Below are positions 1,446 to 29,513 of a DNA stretch of 40,896 nt, piece after piece; within the stretch, counting starts at the first letter, position 1; the number at the start of each line of letters is the position of its first letter. The notes beneath the pieces are model-generated. The model was not told where the DNA came from, made no database searches, and was given only the letters and a program-made list of their open reading frames with translations. A program made the position numbers and the translations under genes. This DNA is from a virus (taxonomy: Duplodnaviria; Heunggongvirae; Uroviricota; Caudoviricetes). The stretch lies in IMG/VR virus record IMGVR_UViG_2558309052_000002; one strand, written 5' to 3'.

Positions 1446-1520
1446 TGATTCACATGAAGAATGATGCGCCGCGCGATAAATGCACTCTATCTTGTGCGAT
1501 AAATGGCATCCACGCGGCGT
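1446..1520. other. putative prophage terminus with repeated transposase-binding-like motifs
   Basis: TGATTCACATGAAG at 1446 resembles the Mu end TGTATTGATTCACTTGAAG. Two direct copies of GCGATAAATG(C/G) about 24 nt apart (about 1471-1510), then CGTTTCATTATTTGAAAAAG. Boundary is an inference; no second end available to confirm a 5-bp target duplication. Confidence 0.4.
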
Positions 1521-1539: not shown

Positions 1540-2112
1540 TTACATTTCAGGTTGCGTTATGACAGTCCCAACAGGGTGATAGCGGTAGATCGTTGACAGT
1601 CCAATATCATAGATAATTGCCAGCCGCTTTCTGTCATACCCTTTCTGGAGCAATCTTGCGATCTGCTCATGCTGCTCCTTCGTCAGTTTCGGGCGACGTC
1701 CTCCAACTCTTCCTTGTGCTCGCGCAGCAGCCAGTCCAGCCAGCGTGCGCTCAACTATCAGTTCACGCTCCATTTCTGCCAGTGCACCCATCATATGAAA
1801 AAAGAACCTTCCCATCGGAGTGCTGGTATCGATTGAATCCGTCAGACTGCGAAAATTGACACCTTTTGCGCGTAGCTCTTCTGTGAGAGCAATGAGGTGT
1901 TTCATTCTTCTACCCAACCGATCCAGCTTCCAGACCACCAATGTATCCCCTCTTTTAAGGCACTTTAAAGCGCGTTTCAGGCCTGGTCGTTCCGACTTGG
2001 TTCCGCTCATTTTGTCCTCAAAAATCTGTTCACATCCTGCGCACATTAATGCATTGCGTTGCAAATCTGTGTTTTGGTCATTTGTTGACACACGTATGTA
2101 GCCAATCAGCAT
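1540..2112 (-). CDS. Gin/Pin/Hin-family serine DNA invertase
   Basis: 190-aa product from ATG at 2112 (RBS AGGGAG upstream): MLIGYIRVSTNDQNTDLQRNAL...GDTLVVWKLDRLGR...RSLTDSIDTSTPMGRFFFHMMGALAEMEREL..., co-linear with Mu Gin. The longer ORF in the track (to 2241) is an upstream frame extension. Confidence 0.93.
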   Translation of the reverse strand: MLIGYIRVSTNDQNTDLQRNALMCAGCEQIFEDKMSGTKSERPGLKRALKCLKRGDTLVVWKLDRLGRRMKHLIALTEELRAKGVNFRSLTDSIDTSTPMGRFFFHMMGALAEMERELIVERTLAGLAAARAQGRVGGRRPKLTKEQHEQIARLLQKGYDRKRLAIIYDIGLSTIYRYHPVGTVITQPEM

Positions 2113-2180
2113 TAAAAATACTCCCTTTTGAGTGGTTAAAGTACTGAGATAATGTGGGGAGGATTTGAGAGATAAACGTT

Positions 2181-2696
2181 GGTTTAGGAGAAGGCTCGGC
2201 GCTACCCGTTGGTGTGCCTGTTCCGTGGCCCACCGCCACACCGCCAGCAGGCTGGTTAAAGTGCGACGGGCGCGCCTTTACAAAAGAACAATATCCTGTT
2301 CTGGCCAGAGTCTACCCGACCCTCCGTCTTCCCGATTTACGCGGTGAGTTTATCCGTGGATGGGACGACGGGCGCAAAGTTGATACAGGACGTAAGTTGC
2401 TGTCCGCACAAGGGGCAACGCTGTTAAGAACAGCAATGCTGGATTATTATAACCAGGACACTACGGGAACCTCGGGGATAGTCGGCATGGGATTCAACAA
2501 TGAAGATTCCATTACAGACCTTCGTGAGGGCAGCTTTAAAATGCCGGACGGGACAACATTCAGCGATCCTGTCGTGGCAATGTCAGACAATGGTATGCAG
2601 GCTACTATTCTGACCTCTATCAGAAGCGGGTATGCGAAGGGTATCACTGTCAGACCCCGTAGCATTGCACTTAATTACATTGTGAGGGCAGTTTAA
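2181..2696 (+). CDS. alternative tail-fibre C-terminal variable cassette (A), currently silent
   Basis: Frame open from 2169 with no credible own start. Begins with the shared LGEGSALPVGVPVPWPTATPPAGWLKCDGRAFTKEQ block, then a unique region, ending ...RPRSIALNYIVRAV. Confidence 0.7.
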   Translation, partial: GLGEGSALPVGVPVPWPTATPPAGWLKCDGRAFTKEQYPVLARVYPTLRLPDLRGEFIRGWDDGRKVDTGRKLLSAQGATLLRTAMLDYYNQDTTGTSGIVGMGFNNEDSITDLREGSFKMPDGTTFSDPVVAMSDNGMQATILTSIRSGYAKGITVRPRSIALNYIVRAV

Positions 2697-3310
2697 TGAG
2701 TAACACTGCAGTTCTGGATGAAAACGGTATCGCCACTGTAGCGGGCGATATCACTGTATATCACTATGACGAGGAAACCCGGGAATACACCTCATCCTCT
2801 GTGGAGTATCTCGCCCTTGGGGTGGGTACTCCGGCACATTCGTGCGCCGATGCACCGCCGGAAGCAATTTCGGGTTACGTGGTTTGCCGGACTGCCACGC
2901 TGAACGGGTGGGAGCATGTGCCTGATCACCGCGGCGAGACGGTATACAGCACGGAGAACGGTAACCCCGTTCTGATTACCCAACCGGGTGATTACCCGGC
3001 GGACACCACCACAAAACAGCCAGCCACGCCATGGGATACCTGGAACGGTGAGGCGTGGGTAACCGATACTGAACGGCAGCGAGCCGCAGAACTGGAGGTT
3101 GCCAGACAGCAACGCCAGCAACGGGTGAAACAGGCGATGGCGTCCGTCGATCTTATCAACCTCAAACTGCGTGCTGGTCGCAGTCTGAAACCAGAAGAAA
3201 CGGCAAAACTGAACGCCGTGCTGGATTATATCGACGAGCTGAACGCACTGGATATCAGCAAGGCACCTGAAATCAGCTGGCCGGAAGCGCCACTGGCGCT
3301 TGCCGGCTGA
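2696..3310 (+). CDS. tail fibre assembly protein (chaperone) paired with cassette A
   Basis: 204 aa. ATG overlaps the cassette A stop (TAATG). Resembles phage tail-fibre assembly proteins (Mu U / P2 G type). Confidence 0.75.
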   Translation: MSNTAVLDENGIATVAGDITVYHYDEETREYTSSSVEYLALGVGTPAHSCADAPPEAISGYVVCRTATLNGWEHVPDHRGETVYSTENGNPVLITQPGDYPADTTTKQPATPWDTWNGEAWVTDTERQRAAELEVARQQRQQRVKQAMASVDLINLKLRAGRSLKPEETAKLNAVLDYIDELNALDISKAPEISWPEAPLALAG

Positions 3311-3316
3311 ACGGTA

Positions 3317-3778
3317 TCACGCCGCCCTCACGATATAGTTAAATGCGATATTGCGGGGGCGAGCTGATACATAAGCCCACCAGTCATATCTTTGTGCACC
3401 TTTAGAGGATGCATCAAATATCCACTTTTTGCCATTTAAGACCCCCAGTTGATTAGAGGTTAAAGCGTCACCAAATCCGTATTGTGTAGAGCCGAGCGAA
3501 CTGATATCTCCGGTATCATTATCATCAAAACCGGATACGATAGTCCCTTCCTGAAATGAAAGTAGCGCACGCCCGGTATCAACCTTGCGACCACCGTCCC
3601 ATCCACGGATAAACTCACCGCGCAAATCGGGAAGACGGAGGGTCGGGTAGACTCTGACCAGAACAGGATATTGTTCTTTGGTGAACGTAGCTCCGTTGCA
3701 CTGTAACCAGCCTGCTGGCGGTGTGGCGGTGGGCCATGGAACCGGTACACCAACAGGCAATGCAGAGCCTTCCCCCAA
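3317..3778 (-). CDS. alternative tail-fibre C-terminal variable cassette (B), silent, no ATG
   Basis: 153-codon frame beginning TTG-GGG-GAA (LGEGSALPVG...) 10 nt after the expressed fibre stop; ends ...RPRNIAFNYIVRAA. Diverged homology block (about 85% to A/C). No downstream assembly gene. Confidence 0.6.
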   Translation of the reverse strand: MGEGSALPVGVPVPWPTATPPAGWLQCNGATFTKEQYPVLVRVYPTLRLPDLRGEFIRGWDGGRKVDTGRALLSFQEGTIVSGFDDNDTGDISSLGSTQYGFGDALTSNQLGVLNGKKWIFDASSKGAQRYDWWAYVSARPRNIAFNYIVRAA

Positions 3779-3788
3779 ACCAACGTTT

Positions 3789-5042
3789 CTATGCCGCCCT
3801 TACGATGTAATTAAACGCAATGTTACGGGGACGAATGGTCACATAATTAACCCCATCGCCTCGCGAAGGACCTGCAAATGAAAAACGGGAGAATCCAGGT
3901 TGGTTGTCAACGATTTGGTCATAGTTATTGATTGAATGACCAGACCCAATGTCAAAATTACCTGCGTAATGAGAAAAACTTGTACCATCCTGCCGTGAAA
4001 GCAGATCGCGCCCTGTATCCACTTTTCGCCCGTCGTCCCATCCACGGATAAACTCACCGCGTAAATCGGGAAGACGGAGGGTCGGGTAGACTCTGGCCAG
4101 AACAGGATATTGTTCTTTTGTAAAGGCGCGCCCGTCGCACTTTAACCAGCCTGCTGGCGGTGTGGCAGTGGGCCACGGAACAGGTACACCAACGGGCAGC
4201 GCCGAGCCTTCCCCCAAACCAAGGTAATTGAGGACATCTTTTATACTGCCCTTAGCGATAATAGCGCGACCAATAGCTGTAAGGGTTGCCAGCTCTGCGC
4301 GGTCTGCTCCGGTAAAATAAGGCAACCGATCTGCTGCAGTGGCAAGTCCTGCCAGAGCAGTGAGCGTGGCATCTGCCGGTTGTTTTCCGTTTGCCAGATC
4401 GTATGCAGCCTTGACCGCTTTCGGTGTGGCGGCCAGTATTTCAGACGTGCTGTTGATGGCACTGCTCAATTGTACGGTGCCTTTTGCCGTCAGCGAGGCA
4501 GCAGGCACTCCCGTTATCTGACTCCACGGGTGAGTGTGGCTGACGGGCGCCTTGCCGGCTGCAAGGTCGTATGCAGCCTTGACCGCCTTCGGCGTGGCAG
4601 CCTCAGTTTCTGATTGACTGTCCGTGGCGCTGCTCAGTTGTACGGTGCCTTTTGCCGTCAGTGAAGCCGCAGGCACTCCCGTTATCTGACTCCACGGGTG
4701 AGTGTGGCTGGCAGGCGCCTTGCCGGCTGCCAGGTCGTATGCAGCCTTGACCGCTTTTGGTGTGGCGGCCAGCGTTTCAGAGGTGCTGTTGGTGGCACTG
4801 CTCAGTTGGGTGAACCCCTTAGCTGTCAGTGTCGCGTCCGGGTGGTTACGGGAACGTACGTGTTCAGCCAGTGACTGTGCGGCTTCCTCCGTTTTCTTCT
4901 TCAGCCATTTCGTCCTGTTTGCCAGTTGCCGGGGGGCTCGATTTGATATCCCGTCTGCACCACCCAGAACCGGATCTGATGTCTCCAGTTGATAGATATT
5001 TTCTTCCCACTTTTCTGTTTCATTCAGGTTTCCCATAATCAA
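3789..5042 (-). CDS. tail fibre protein (constant N-terminal part fused to variable cassette C)
   Basis: 417 aa. ATGA overlap with the upstream gpI-like gene; internal 56-aa tail-fibre repeats; C-terminal 140 aa is homology block C plus a unique tip ending ...NIAFNYIVRAA. Confidence 0.9.
   Translation of the reverse strand: MIMGNLNETEKWEENIYQLETSDPVLGGADGISNRAPRQLANRTKWLKKKTEEAAQSLAEHVRSRNHPDATLTAKGFTQLSSATNSTSETLAATPKAVKAAYDLAAGKAPASHTHPWSQITGVPAASLTAKGTVQLSSATDSQSETEAATPKAVKAAYDLAAGKAPVSHTHPWSQITGVPAASLTAKGTVQLSSAINSTSEILAATPKAVKAAYDLANGKQPADATLTALAGLATAADRLPYFTGADRAELATLTAIGRAIIAKGSIKDVLNYLGLGEGSALPVGVPVPWPTATPPAGWLKCDGRAFTKEQYPVLARVYPTLRLPDLRGEFIRGWDDGRKVDTGRDLLSRQDGTSFSHYAGNFDIGSGHSINNYDQIVDNQPGFSRFSFAGPSRGDGVNYVTIRPRNIAFNYIVRAA
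4388..4829 (-). repeat. in-frame tandem repeats (168 bp, about 2.6 copies) inside the tail fibre gene
   Basis: Protein repeat LTAKG(F/T)(T/V)QLSSA.(N/D)S.SE..AATPKAVKAAYDLA.GKAP.SHTHPWSQITGVPAAS occurs twice in full and once in part. Shadow ORFs on + at 4393 and 4729 (336 nt apart) share ARSYAALTAFGVAAS. Confidence 0.85.
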
Positions 5043-26825: not shown

Positions 26826-26962
26826 AGCGCGTTAAGAGAGCCGGGGATACGGGATGTGCAGGATAAACGATGAATTATTCACAGAGGAGAATACGATATG
26901 ACGCAGACACTGAATCCGGTCATCACTGTCACCGTGTCCGGTCCTGTGGGCAGCGGTAAAAG

Positions 26963-26990
26963 TTACCGTACTGGCGCGAATAGAGGTAAG
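26963..26990. repeat. 28-bp direct repeat, left copy, flanking the IS66-family element
   Basis: TTACCGTACTGGCGCGAATAGAGGTAAG, identical to 29514-29541. The last 5 nt overlap the IS terminus GTAAG. Confidence 0.9.
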
Positions 26991-27015
26991 CGTCAACGGA
27001 GCACCGTATTGACGC

Positions 27016-28629
27016 TTATTTATTGGTGAGTACTACGTTCCATGGCAGGAGTTCGTCAACTCGGTTGGAAGGCCATTCCGGCAGTACGCTCAGGATATGG
27101 CGCAGATACGCTTCCGGATCGATACCGTTCAGACGGCAGGTGCCGATCAGCCCGTACAACAGTGCTCCACGCTCGCCGCCGTGATCGCTGCCAAAGAACA
27201 TAAAGTTTTTCTTTCCGAGACAGACTGCACGAAGCGCTCTTTCCGCAGCATTATTATCCGCCTCCGCCAGACCGTCATCACTGTAATAACAGAGGGCATC
27301 CCACTGATTCAGTACATAGCTGAACGCTTCGCCCAGTCTGGATTTTTTCGACAGCGTACCATTCTTCTCCACCATCCATTCATGCAGCGACGTCAGTAAC
27401 ACTTTGCTTCGCTGCTGCCTGACGGCAAGACGCTCTGACTCCGGTAATCCCCGTATTTCATCCTCGATGGCGTACAGTTCACTGATTCGCTTCAGGGCTT
27501 CTTCTGCCGTCGCACTTTTGCTGCTGATGTATACATCGTGGATTTTTCGCCGGGCATGGGCCCAGCACGCAACTTCTGTCAGTGCACCACCTTCACGTTC
27601 TGCACTGAACAACCTGTCGTAACCTGTGAACGCATCCGCCTGCAGGATACCCCGGAAGGGGCGGAGGTGTTGCTCCGGGTGTTTCCCCTGCCGGTTCGGC
27701 GAGTACGCGAACCAGACCGCTGGAGGAGATGACGAACCCACATTGCGATCATCCCGGACATACGTCCAGATACGCCCTGTTTTCGCCTTTTTCTGACCCG
27801 GTGCCAGTACCTTTACCGGTGTGTCATCAGTGTGAACCTTGCGGGTGTTCATTACATAACGGTACAGGGCATCATTCACCGGTGTCATTAACTGGCAGCA
27901 CGCGTCAACCCAGTTGGAGAGTAAGGCCCGGCTCAGTTCGACACCCTGGCGGGCAAAGATTTCACTCTGACGATACAGTGGCAGATGTTCGCAGTATTTT
28001 CCCGTTAACACGCGGGCAAGTAATCCGGGGCCCGCGATACCACGCTCTATCGGGCGGGACGGCGCCGGTGCTTCAACAATACAGTCACATTTTGTACAGG
28101 CTTTTTTTACCCGTTCTGTGCGGATCACTTTCAGGGCACTGCTCACCAGTTCCAGCTGTTCAGCGCTGACTTCCCCCAGATAATCCAGCTCACCGCCACA
28201 CTCCGGGCAACAGCTTTCTTCTGGCTCCAGGCGGTGTATTTCACGGGGAAGGTGTGCCGGTAACGGACGACGATGGCGCGACTGTCGCAACTGGCGGGGA
28301 ACCTGAGGATCGTCTTCCCGCCCACTGTAACGATCGCTGTCCTGTTCACGTTGTTTCAGCAGAGCCTCAGCCAGTTCAACTTCACGACGCAGTTTTTCAG
28401 AACGGGTACCGAACAGCATCCGGCGCAGTTTTTCTATCTGAGCCCGCAGATGTTCTATTTCCCGTTCATCTTCTTCGATCTTTTCTTCGGCACGTGTCAG
28501 TGCAGAGCGCAGGAAGGCTTCCGTCTCTTCAACCAGACTCAGTTGCTGGTCTTTCTGACGGAGGGCTTCAGCCTGCTCAGAGAGCAACCTTTCCAGCTCT
28601 GCGATGCGAATGAGGTATTTCTGACTCAT
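27016..28629 (-). CDS. IS66-family transposase (TnpC / orf3)
   Basis: 537 aa, N-terminal coiled coil, CxxC...CxxC zinc-ribbon region and DDE-type core; typical IS66 transposase architecture. Confidence 0.9.
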   Translation of the reverse strand: MSQKYLIRIAELERLLSEQAEALRQKDQQLSLVEETEAFLRSALTRAEEKIEEDEREIEHLRAQIEKLRRMLFGTRSEKLRREVELAEALLKQREQDSDRYSGREDDPQVPRQLRQSRHRRPLPAHLPREIHRLEPEESCCPECGGELDYLGEVSAEQLELVSSALKVIRTERVKKACTKCDCIVEAPAPSRPIERGIAGPGLLARVLTGKYCEHLPLYRQSEIFARQGVELSRALLSNWVDACCQLMTPVNDALYRYVMNTRKVHTDDTPVKVLAPGQKKAKTGRIWTYVRDDRNVGSSSPPAVWFAYSPNRQGKHPEQHLRPFRGILQADAFTGYDRLFSAEREGGALTEVACWAHARRKIHDVYISSKSATAEEALKRISELYAIEDEIRGLPESERLAVRQQRSKVLLTSLHEWMVEKNGTLSKKSRLGEAFSYVLNQWDALCYYSDDGLAEADNNAAERALRAVCLGKKNFMFFGSDHGGERGALLYGLIGTCRLNGIDPEAYLRHILSVLPEWPSNRVDELLPWNVVLTNK

Positions 28630-28659
28630 GACCGTTTTTATAATGCGGTCAGGAGTTTT

Positions 28660-29010
28660 TTACAACATTGTCAGTGAGTTACGGCTGGATGTTTTTGGCT
28701 GACGCCAGTCCAGCTTATCGAGGAGCATTGCCAGTTGCGAGCGGGTAATGGATACCTTGCCGTCACGTACCGCAGGCCAGATAAACTGGCCTTCCTCCAG
28801 GCGTTTGGTGAACAGGCACAGACCATCAGCATCAGCCCAAAGAATTTTGACGGTGTCACCCCGTCGGCCACGGAAGATAAACAGGTGACCGGAGAAGGGA
28901 TTATCATTCAGCACATGTTGTACCTGTTCTCCCAGTCCGTTGAAGGATTTACGCATATCGGTAACGCCGGCAACGAGCCAGATACGGGTACCTGATGGGA
29001 GTGAGATCAT
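28660..29010 (-). CDS. IS66-family accessory protein TnpB (orf2)
   Basis: 116 aa, MISLPSGTRIWLVAGVTDMRKSFNGLGEQV...; recognisable IS66 Orf2 family. Confidence 0.9.
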   Translation of the reverse strand: MISLPSGTRIWLVAGVTDMRKSFNGLGEQVQHVLNDNPFSGHLFIFRGRRGDTVKILWADADGLCLFTKRLEEGQFIWPAVRDGKVSITRSQLAMLLDKLDWRQPKTSSRNSLTML

Positions 29011-29432
29011 CTTCCCCTCCCGGTCAGTTCACGGATCAACACTGTGAGCAGCTCTGGCGATGGATTTTCCAGCGTCATGTTACCGTGACGGAATTCCACC
29101 TTGCAGGAACTGGCACTGACTCTGGTCTGAGTGGAAGTGGATAAAGACGGCGCAATGGCCGCCACAGGTTCTTTCTGCTCATCCGGCGTTATTTCTACAG
29201 GTAATAATTCAACGCCAGTGTCAGAAGAGGTCGTTACCGGAAGACGCCGCGAAACACGCCCTTCGTTCTGCCAGAGCCTGAGCCATTTGAAAATAACATT
29301 ATCATTGACGCCATTTTCACGTGCAATCTGTGCAACACAAGCTCCAGGTTGTGATGCCAGTTCCACCATACGAAGTTTGAATTCATTCGAATAGTTTTTA
29401 CGAGGTTCTTTTCGCCAGTCCTGTAATTCCAT
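29007..29432 (-). CDS. IS66-family accessory protein TnpA (orf1)
   Basis: 141 aa, helix-turn-helix-like N-terminus (MVELASQPGACVAQIARENGVNDNVIFKWLR); overlaps orf2 by 4 nt. Confidence 0.85.
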   Translation of the reverse strand: MELQDWRKEPRKNYSNEFKLRMVELASQPGACVAQIARENGVNDNVIFKWLRLWQNEGRVSRRLPVTTSSDTGVELLPVEITPDEQKEPVAAIAPSLSTSTQTRVSASSCKVEFRHGNMTLENPSPELLTVLIRELTGRGR

Positions 29433-29513
29433 ACTTAGATGTCCGTCTATATCAGATGGGCGTCTAAGTTACCAATTCTCGTCTGATGGCTACATACGGC
29501 GGTCAGTTTACGC

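Follow-up and report, generated by a model that had tools for sequence, protein, structure and literature searches.

The virus record IMGVR_UViG_2558309052_000002 (40,896 nucleotides, called the window in the following) is identical to positions 1000847-1041742 of the chromosome of Escherichia coli JJ1886, a strain of sequence type 131 (ST131). It opens with aroA and carries a transposable Mu-like prophage from about position 1463. We are highly confident that the tail-fibre region of this prophage is a Gin-type multiple-inversion switch with three crossover sites and four states. The window contains the three sites and three tip cassettes that can be joined in frame to the constant part of the fibre gene; all four isomers occur in E. 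coli chromosomes, and the exchange point lies at the core of the sites. The features concerned are as follows (window coordinates, strand):

1540..2112, minus: Gin-family serine DNA invertase of 190 residues, transcribed outward, towards aroA
1959..2019, no strand: candidate recombinational enhancer, two Fis-like 15-mers in the 5' part of the invertase gene (gene nucleotides 94-108 and 140-154)
2167..2192, plus: crossover site A, GAGAGATAAACG TT GGTTTAGGAGAA, core at 2179-2180
2181..2696, plus: fibre tip cassette A, 171 residues, collar and variable tip (Pfam Collar, 4e-15), without a 5' constant part of its own and silent in the window
2696..3310, plus: tail-fibre assembly (Tfa) gene, 204 residues, following tip A (Pfam Caudo_TAP, 6e-27; phrog_105, 3e-87)
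3317..3781, minus: fibre tip cassette B, 154 residues (Pfam Collar, 2.5e-15), without a Tfa gene of its own and silent in the window
3770..3795, minus: internal crossover site B, GGCATAGAAACG TT GGTTTGGGGGAA, core at 3782-3783
3789..4220, minus: fibre tip cassette C, 143 residues, expressed in the window as part of the uninterrupted open reading frame (ORF) 5036..3789
4209..4234, minus: crossover site C, TCCTCAATTACC TT GGTTTGGGGGAA, core at 4221-4222, at the constant/variable junction of the fibre gene
4221..5036, minus: constant 5' part of the tail-fibre gene, 272 residues, three Phage_fiber_2 repeats (Pfam, 5e-56)
2180..3782, no strand: invertible segment S1 (tip A and Tfa on the plus strand, tip B on the minus strand), flipped by A x B
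3783..4221, no strand: segment S2 (tip C, on the minus strand), inverted together with S1 in A x C (2042 bp from core to core)

Three crossover sites beside a Gin-type invertase

All three sites are gix-like elements of 26 bp that have in common a TT core and the right half GGTTT(A/G)GG(A/G)GAA, the consensus already proposed in the initial annotation. The core is identical and non-palindromic in the three, and site A on the plus strand is inverted relative to B and C on the minus strand. When the 14-mer TTGGTTTRGGRGAA was searched with at most one mismatch, the window gave three matches, namely sites A, B and C, and none elsewhere; shuffled sequence gave 0.03 matches on average, and three were reached in 0 of 100 shuffles. 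The left half-sites are weaker (AAACG / TTACC) yet within the published consensus quoted in Table 3 of Forde et al. (2014), where the left half of site C recurs unchanged as the 'Phi2_5prime' left half.

Each site stands at the 5' edge of a repeated block of about 230 bp, which encodes the tail-collar domain. The repeat finder returned two inverted pairs, 2176-2404 x 3997-4225 (94% complementary) and 2174-2404 x 3558-3788 (86%), as well as the direct pair 3543-3786 / 3982-4225 (85%). Together with the motif scan, this bears out the earlier placement of one block on the plus and two on the minus strand. Aligned in register from the core, the blocks are 93% (A vs C), 85% (A vs B) and 86% (B vs C) identical, and the longest perfect run between A and C measures exactly 140 bp, in agreement with the 140 bp and the roughly 85% given for B at the outset. 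As judged from these identities, a recent exchange between A and C is plausible.

The gene next to the sites had been assigned to the Gin family, which is confirmed by its Pfam domains (Resolvase PF00239, 8e-51; HTH_7 PF02796, 1e-12) and by matches to the Mu Gin structures 3UJ3/4M6F (E about 1e-93). Identity to Mu Gin amounts to 138 of 181 residues (76%). As is characteristic of Din-family enzymes, an N-terminal resolvase catalytic domain with the active-site serine (Ser9, in RVSTNDQ) is combined with a C-terminal helix-turn-helix. The two Fis-like 15-mers conform to G-N13-C with A/T-rich centres; they are 46 bp apart and occupy the same gene positions as in Mu gin (GAGGACAAAATGAGC here vs GAAGATAAATTAAGC in Mu, and GCGCTTTAAAGTGCC vs GCGCTTTAAAGCGCC). 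Third-codon positions at these 15-mers are just slightly more conserved between the two genes.

The fibre gene is composed of a constant 5' part ending in a site and one of three promoterless 3' cassettes, each of which opens with the shared right half-site and the conserved collar and closes with a different tip of about 60-90 residues. According to our proposal, the invertase would pair any two sites in inverted orientation, cut at the shared TT core and swap the halves; presumably it is this enzyme, together with Fis and an enhancer, that performs the exchange. The invertible segments 2180-3782 and 2180-4221 overlap, with their three sites clustered. Since site A faces both B and C, and a Gin-type enzyme joins inverted sites only, exactly four arrangements are expected. 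They are listed here with the number of genomes in which each was found in the census described below (Sc-A, Sc-B and Sc-C denote the fusions to the three tips):

State 1 (S1 S2), the window: Sc-C (fibre-C), with B and the antisense Tfa gene downstream; 65 genomes
State 2 (S1' S2): Sc-C (fibre-C), with A-Tfa co-oriented downstream; 75 genomes
State 3 (S2' S1'): Sc-A-Tfa (fibre-A plus Tfa); 133 genomes
State 4 (S2' S1): Sc-B (fibre-B), tip B fused to the constant part; 112 genomes

The initial annotation had spoken of at least four arrangements. All four indeed occur, in 65-133 genomes each, and the inversion-only logic replaces "at least" by "exactly". A lysogen population would thus mix prophages that yield virions with three different receptor-binding tips.

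All four isomers in E. coli chromosomes

A set of 5,426 complete E. coli genomes was searched for the predicted junctions, each constructed as an exchange at the TT core. Every predicted junction was recovered at 100% identity and full length among the top matches. We then compared complete loci, fetched at the same aroA-side position from five ST131 chromosomes: strain 4/1-1 is in state 3, AR_0055 and M70 are in state 4, and U15A and U12A in state 2. The in-silico isomers agree with these five chromosomes over 4401 bp without one difference. Two products had been foreseen, an A x C inversion by which the expressed tip is exchanged and the assembly gene joins the fibre operon, and an A x B inversion that rearranges the cassettes with the expressed tip unchanged; they are found base for base in ST131 genomes as states 3 and 2, respectively. 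With the double product (state 4) present as well, the earlier suggestion of a shufflon-like, multi-state rather than binary switch is supported. Cassette B, described there as an older third cassette, is no mere bystander: tip B is expressed in state 4, which makes three alternative tips.

The hybrid sites GGCATAGAAACG TT GGTTTAGGAGAA and GAGAGATAAACG TT GGTTTGGGGGAA are present in U15A, U12A, AR_0055 and M70. In all fetched isomers each left half-site remains with its flank and each right half-site accompanies its cassette; at site A, for instance, the left half is always beside the invertase flank, and the right half goes with cassette A. For A x C, the exchange is confined to the seven bases TTGGTTT. 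This pattern of half-sites argues for site-specific exchange, unlike what would be left by RecA recombination within a 230-bp repeat that includes a 140-bp perfect run. As states 2 and 4 require exchange at the internal site and do occur, site B is active and three tips can be expressed.

For a census in the same 5,426 genomes we used queries made of three unique pieces that are co-linear in one state only. The resulting numbers are based on consensus assemblies of related strains and count genomes, not events. No state is rare, and even-step listings for states 1 and 4 (ranked matches at regular intervals) agree with the census proportions. Counts from single junctions (Sc-A 327, Sc-B 202, Sc-C 157, gin-A 302, gin-B 240 and gin-C 296 genomes) gave inconsistent sums; they were dropped in favour of the three-piece queries because relatives share the invertase and tip A, and because the search joins neighbouring collar pieces. 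A 3.8-kb query for state 1 returned 126 genomes, which is not exactly reconcilable with the 65 of the three-piece query and probably takes in two-cassette relatives.

Strains deposited as one series were found in different states. The deposit series 4/4, 4/0 and 4/1-1 shows states 1, 2 and 3, respectively, and JJ1886 is in state 1, JJ1887 in state 3. In the U series, U14A is in state 1, U12A and U15A match state 2 over the full locus, and U13A has an invertase-B junction of the state-2 type. For the Swedish and Utah strain series, no paper establishing a same-patient origin was found.

The prophage in the window is Phi2 of strain EC958. For Phi2, Forde et al. (2014; PMC4134206) reported a separate PacBio contig with the tail-fibre segment in the alternative orientation, and a 227-bp imperfect inverted repeat bounding a 2067-bp invertible segment, which they drew as a binary mirror-image switch. 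This is the same locus: the outer 26-bp sites (TCCTCAATTACC TT GGTTT... and GAGAGATAAACG TT GGTTT...) are identical, the repeat is the same, and the A x C segment described here is the 2067-bp segment of EC958. Inversion of A x C within a culture is evidenced directly by the alternative PacBio contig (PMC4134206). That description makes no mention of an internal third site, of four isomers, of a third tip that can be expressed or of there being a single Tfa gene.

A switch restricted to A x C, as drawn for EC958 with two crossover sites and one 2067-bp segment, would leave site B as a dead remnant and cassette B as a passenger that is never expressed, and in its favour the left half of site B fits the consensus poorly and the B collar is the most diverged (85-86%). 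We consider this hardly tenable, since states 2 and 4, which require the internal site, are present in 75 and 112 genomes, base for base as predicted, and the hybrids B-left/A-right and A-left/B-right are seen directly; the binary reading is refuted unless all state-2 and state-4 assemblies were mis-assembled alike. Homologous recombination by RecA between the inverted collar repeats of about 230 bp would be a different source of the same isomers, and with a perfect A-C run of 140 bp the repeats are long enough for it. It would, however, mostly exchange within that identical run and so produce chimeric collars, whereas the exchange lies at the 26-bp site in five of the five fetched isomers: the cassette always takes along the polymorphisms that start 6 bp into the right half-site, and the base before the core always stays with the flank. 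Moreover, the queries built on a core exchange were matched over their full length at 100% identity by the top hits, and A x B, at 85% identity, would be rare by the RecA route, yet states 2 and 4 are common. RecA as the source is thus highly improbable.

Assemblers can be misled by inverted repeats, and the census genomes are assemblies related by descent and not independent events. The arrangements might hence be assembly artefacts or old, clonally inherited fixed polymorphisms, with no switching going on at present. This appears very unlikely to us: the genomes are finished and the region spans just 2 kb; the loci examined show the four states and no others, none of them rare; and different states occur within one deposit series. 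In addition, Forde et al. found the tail-fibre segment of another prophage, Phi1, flipped in about half of the PacBio reads from one EC958 culture, besides the separate alternative contig for Phi2 (PMC4134206).

Several points nevertheless weigh against the proposed three-site switch. The tips are unevenly distributed (C in 140, A in 133 and B in 112 genomes), and equally frequent states predict 2:1:1. Switching at site B within a culture is what we infer from differences between genomes of common descent. At sites A and B the left halves fit the family consensus poorly, and the Fis-like motifs are at most suggestive of a Fis-dependent enhancer in the 5' part of the invertase gene. Neither tip B nor tip C comes with its own chaperone gene, and in states 1 and 4 the sole Tfa gene runs antisense to the fibre operon, so that functional fibres from these two states are uncertain. 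Finally, the prophage bears an insertion of the IS66 family and may fail to produce virions.

Fibre gene, tips and the single Tfa gene

In the window, ORF 5036-3789 on the minus strand is an intact fibre gene of 415 residues, in which three Phage_fiber_2 repeats are followed by a tail-collar domain (residues 285-332) and a short tip. In-frame fusion of the constant part to the cassettes yields complete ORFs in all cases, with 415 (tip C), 443 (tip A) and 426 residues (tip B). Cassette A matches positions 479-638 of 673 in phrog_523, and cassette B matches phrog_523/3100 up to their C-terminal ends; all three tips match the full C-terminal ends of tail-collar fibre families. Their alignment consists of a conserved collar of about 80 residues, a hypervariable middle of about 55-85 residues and the conserved end RPRxIAxNYIVRA. 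It seems reasonable to assume that the tips differ in receptor specificity.

Cassette A alone is followed by a Tfa gene, the one assembly-chaperone gene of the system. Because this gene rides on S1, its orientation flips independently of the tip that is expressed. By arrangement, the tip C fibre has no co-transcribed Tfa in state 1 and has one in state 2, and tip B is without it in state 4. In a scan for promoters and terminators, no site emerged from which Tfa could be transcribed in states 1 and 4. Tfa proteins of the Mu type remain attached to the tip of the mature fibre and contribute to recognition of the host receptor (PMC9608196), and states 1 and 2 might therefore differ in phenotype. 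Taken further, the four DNA states could form a two-layer switch in which three tips give rise to four virion phenotypes, one of them a chaperone-less state that is 'off' or altered in specificity; we put this forward tentatively and regard it as unlikely. Alternatively, tips B and C, being of the collar type, may fold without any chaperone.

The shaft repeats (Phage_fiber_2) are encoded by three tandem repeats of 168 bp at 4384-4887, the second and third being 84% and 61% identical to the first. In relatives the fibres are longer (542 residues in AR_0067, 664 in Eco889), indicating that the number of shaft repeats varies.

The annotation of this region is inconsistent. RefSeq, through the Prokaryotic Genome Annotation Pipeline (PGAP), splits the intact fibre ORF (3789-5036, minus) of JJ1886 into one coding sequence and 'incomplete' pseudogene fragments, an artefact of the repeats and cassettes, and in other strains the annotation of the ORF differs from isomer to isomer. 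Potential internal starts exist in the silent cassettes, a TTG inside site B (3317-3778, minus) and a GTG after site A (2214-2696, plus), and some RefSeq records list these cassettes as free-standing 'phage tail proteins' of 153 and 160 residues. A preprint on ST131 wound isolates describes a 'translocation' between isolates in the fibre region of a prophage named Burkho_phiE255, which probably is this Mu-like prophage; a two-step inversion would look like the event reported. For ST131 genomics, the switch explains why assembly and annotation are inconsistent here, why split 'pseudogenes' are recorded and why apparent 'translocations' between isolates arise, and the published binary picture of Phi2 is incomplete.

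Known switches, prophage setting and relatives

The switch resembles that of Mu, and in the same sense Cin of P1 and Pin of e14: an invertase 76% identical to Gin lies beside the invertible segment. As with the G segment of Mu, the sites comprise 26 bp with a 2-bp core and are located at the constant/variable junction, and the Fis-like motifs are found at the same gene positions. Mu, however, has two sites and two tips with a chaperone for each (S-U / U'-S'), whereas here three sites serve three short collar-type tips with one chaperone gene. Furthermore, the core is TT instead of the TC of Mu, and the phage is Bcepmuvirus-like and not Mu itself.

Min of p15B, a P1-like plasmid prophage, employs a Din-family serine invertase and six sites that give rise to hundreds of isomers. 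More than two sites, overlapping invertible segments and several 3' fibre segments for one constant 5' part are common to both systems, which differ in that ours has three sites, four isomers and a transposable prophage as its carrier. Min (Sandmeier et al. 1990) is cited as a multiple-inversion system in PMC5903667 and PMC4134206. In Enterobacter phage FRphi (PMC13418256 / bioRxiv 2025.07.22.666180), the fibre has three alternative C-terminal domains, which a neighbouring gin shuffles; in long reads the isoforms stood at about 50:25:25, deletion of gin locks the state, and related loci have up to six paralogs. FhuA was reported as the receptor, for one isoform only, and regulation of the phage is lambda-like. 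By its description FRphi resembles the present locus, as 50:25:25 equals the 2:1:1 predicted by a three-site, four-state scheme with equal states, although the phage is of a different type. The R64 shufflon (Rci) likewise relies on clustered sites and multiple inversions to exchange the C-terminal ends of a binding protein. Our system works like it in outline and is not a member, since in R64 a tyrosine recombinase acts on 19-bp sfx sites and the target is the pilus adhesin PilV, in contrast to a serine invertase and a phage fibre gene.

Multi-site fibre switches driven by serine invertases are thus already known, and the understanding of how they work is unchanged by our finding; what is new here is the active third site and the census of four isomers. 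For phage biology the locus represents a minimal multi-site Gin system, with three sites, four states that are all seen and one chaperone gene.

The prophage encodes a MuA-type DDE transposase, a MuB-like ATPase, Gam, Mor and P2/Mu-type baseplate genes, and the phage record that it matches closely is classified as Bcepmuvirus. At its left end (window 1455-1470) the first codons of the host gene ycaL (ATGAAGAA) give way to TGATGCGCC; at its right end, some 165 bp past the end of the window, we found TCTAATCA and then GAAGAATACT. The ends are of the Mu type (TG...CA) and the target duplication is GAAGA(A), which places the insertion in the 5' end of ycaL. In RefSeq, ycaL is still annotated with a start inside the phage end. 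The divergent early and late modules were initially taken for a rearrangement; this idea was set aside in view of the classification as Bcepmuvirus, a group for which we take such a layout to be normal. At about 26900-29500 in the window, ISEc23, an element of the IS66 family of insertion sequences (tnpA, tnpB, transposase), separates the lysis genes from the early arm and may render the prophage defective.

Phi1 and Phi4 of the same clone also have invertible segments, with a TC core as in Mu gix (Forde et al., Table 3), and the mismatch to the TT core here should block recombination with their sites.

The invertase and tip A recur in related Mu-like prophages at other chromosomal sites of E. 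coli, which have two cassettes or different tips. Versions with two sites, bearing tip A plus Tfa and one other tip, are found in phage 503046 and strain AR_0067, and Eco889 carries a three-site version with other tips. The copies in AR_0067 and Eco889 are 99.7-99.8% identical in the invertase region and are inserted in fliZ and irp2 (yersiniabactin synthetase), respectively. The end of a contig of Escherichia sp. MOD1-EC7003 (positions 1-1100) has at least three tandem units of site plus collar tip in the same orientation, beside an invertase of 84% identity; the contig breaks inside this array, pointing to larger arrays in relatives.

Tip C has its stop codon within the left half of site B. 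Likewise, the left half of every internal site holds the stop codon of the preceding tip, as seen in GGCATAGAAACG, CGCATAAAAACG and CACATAAAAACG (window 3784-3795; Eco889 locus 4258; MOD1-EC7003 contig 556 and 69). A unit of site, tip and site is hence a stackable module, and S2 looks like one such module added to a two-cassette segment. With stackable cassettes of this kind and its one chaperone gene, the locus offers a convenient model for the growth of two-tip switches into shufflons.

Among the other sequences inspected, the P1-like phage vB_EcoM-813R1 gave many weak, uninformative matches, and a scan of genome contigs for the invertase yielded five loci, most of them ending at contig ends. 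A 1,268-bp contig from an assembly of 'Moraxella osloensis' (CAXORL010000041.1) encodes a 100% identical invertase and is most likely an E. coli contamination of that assembly.

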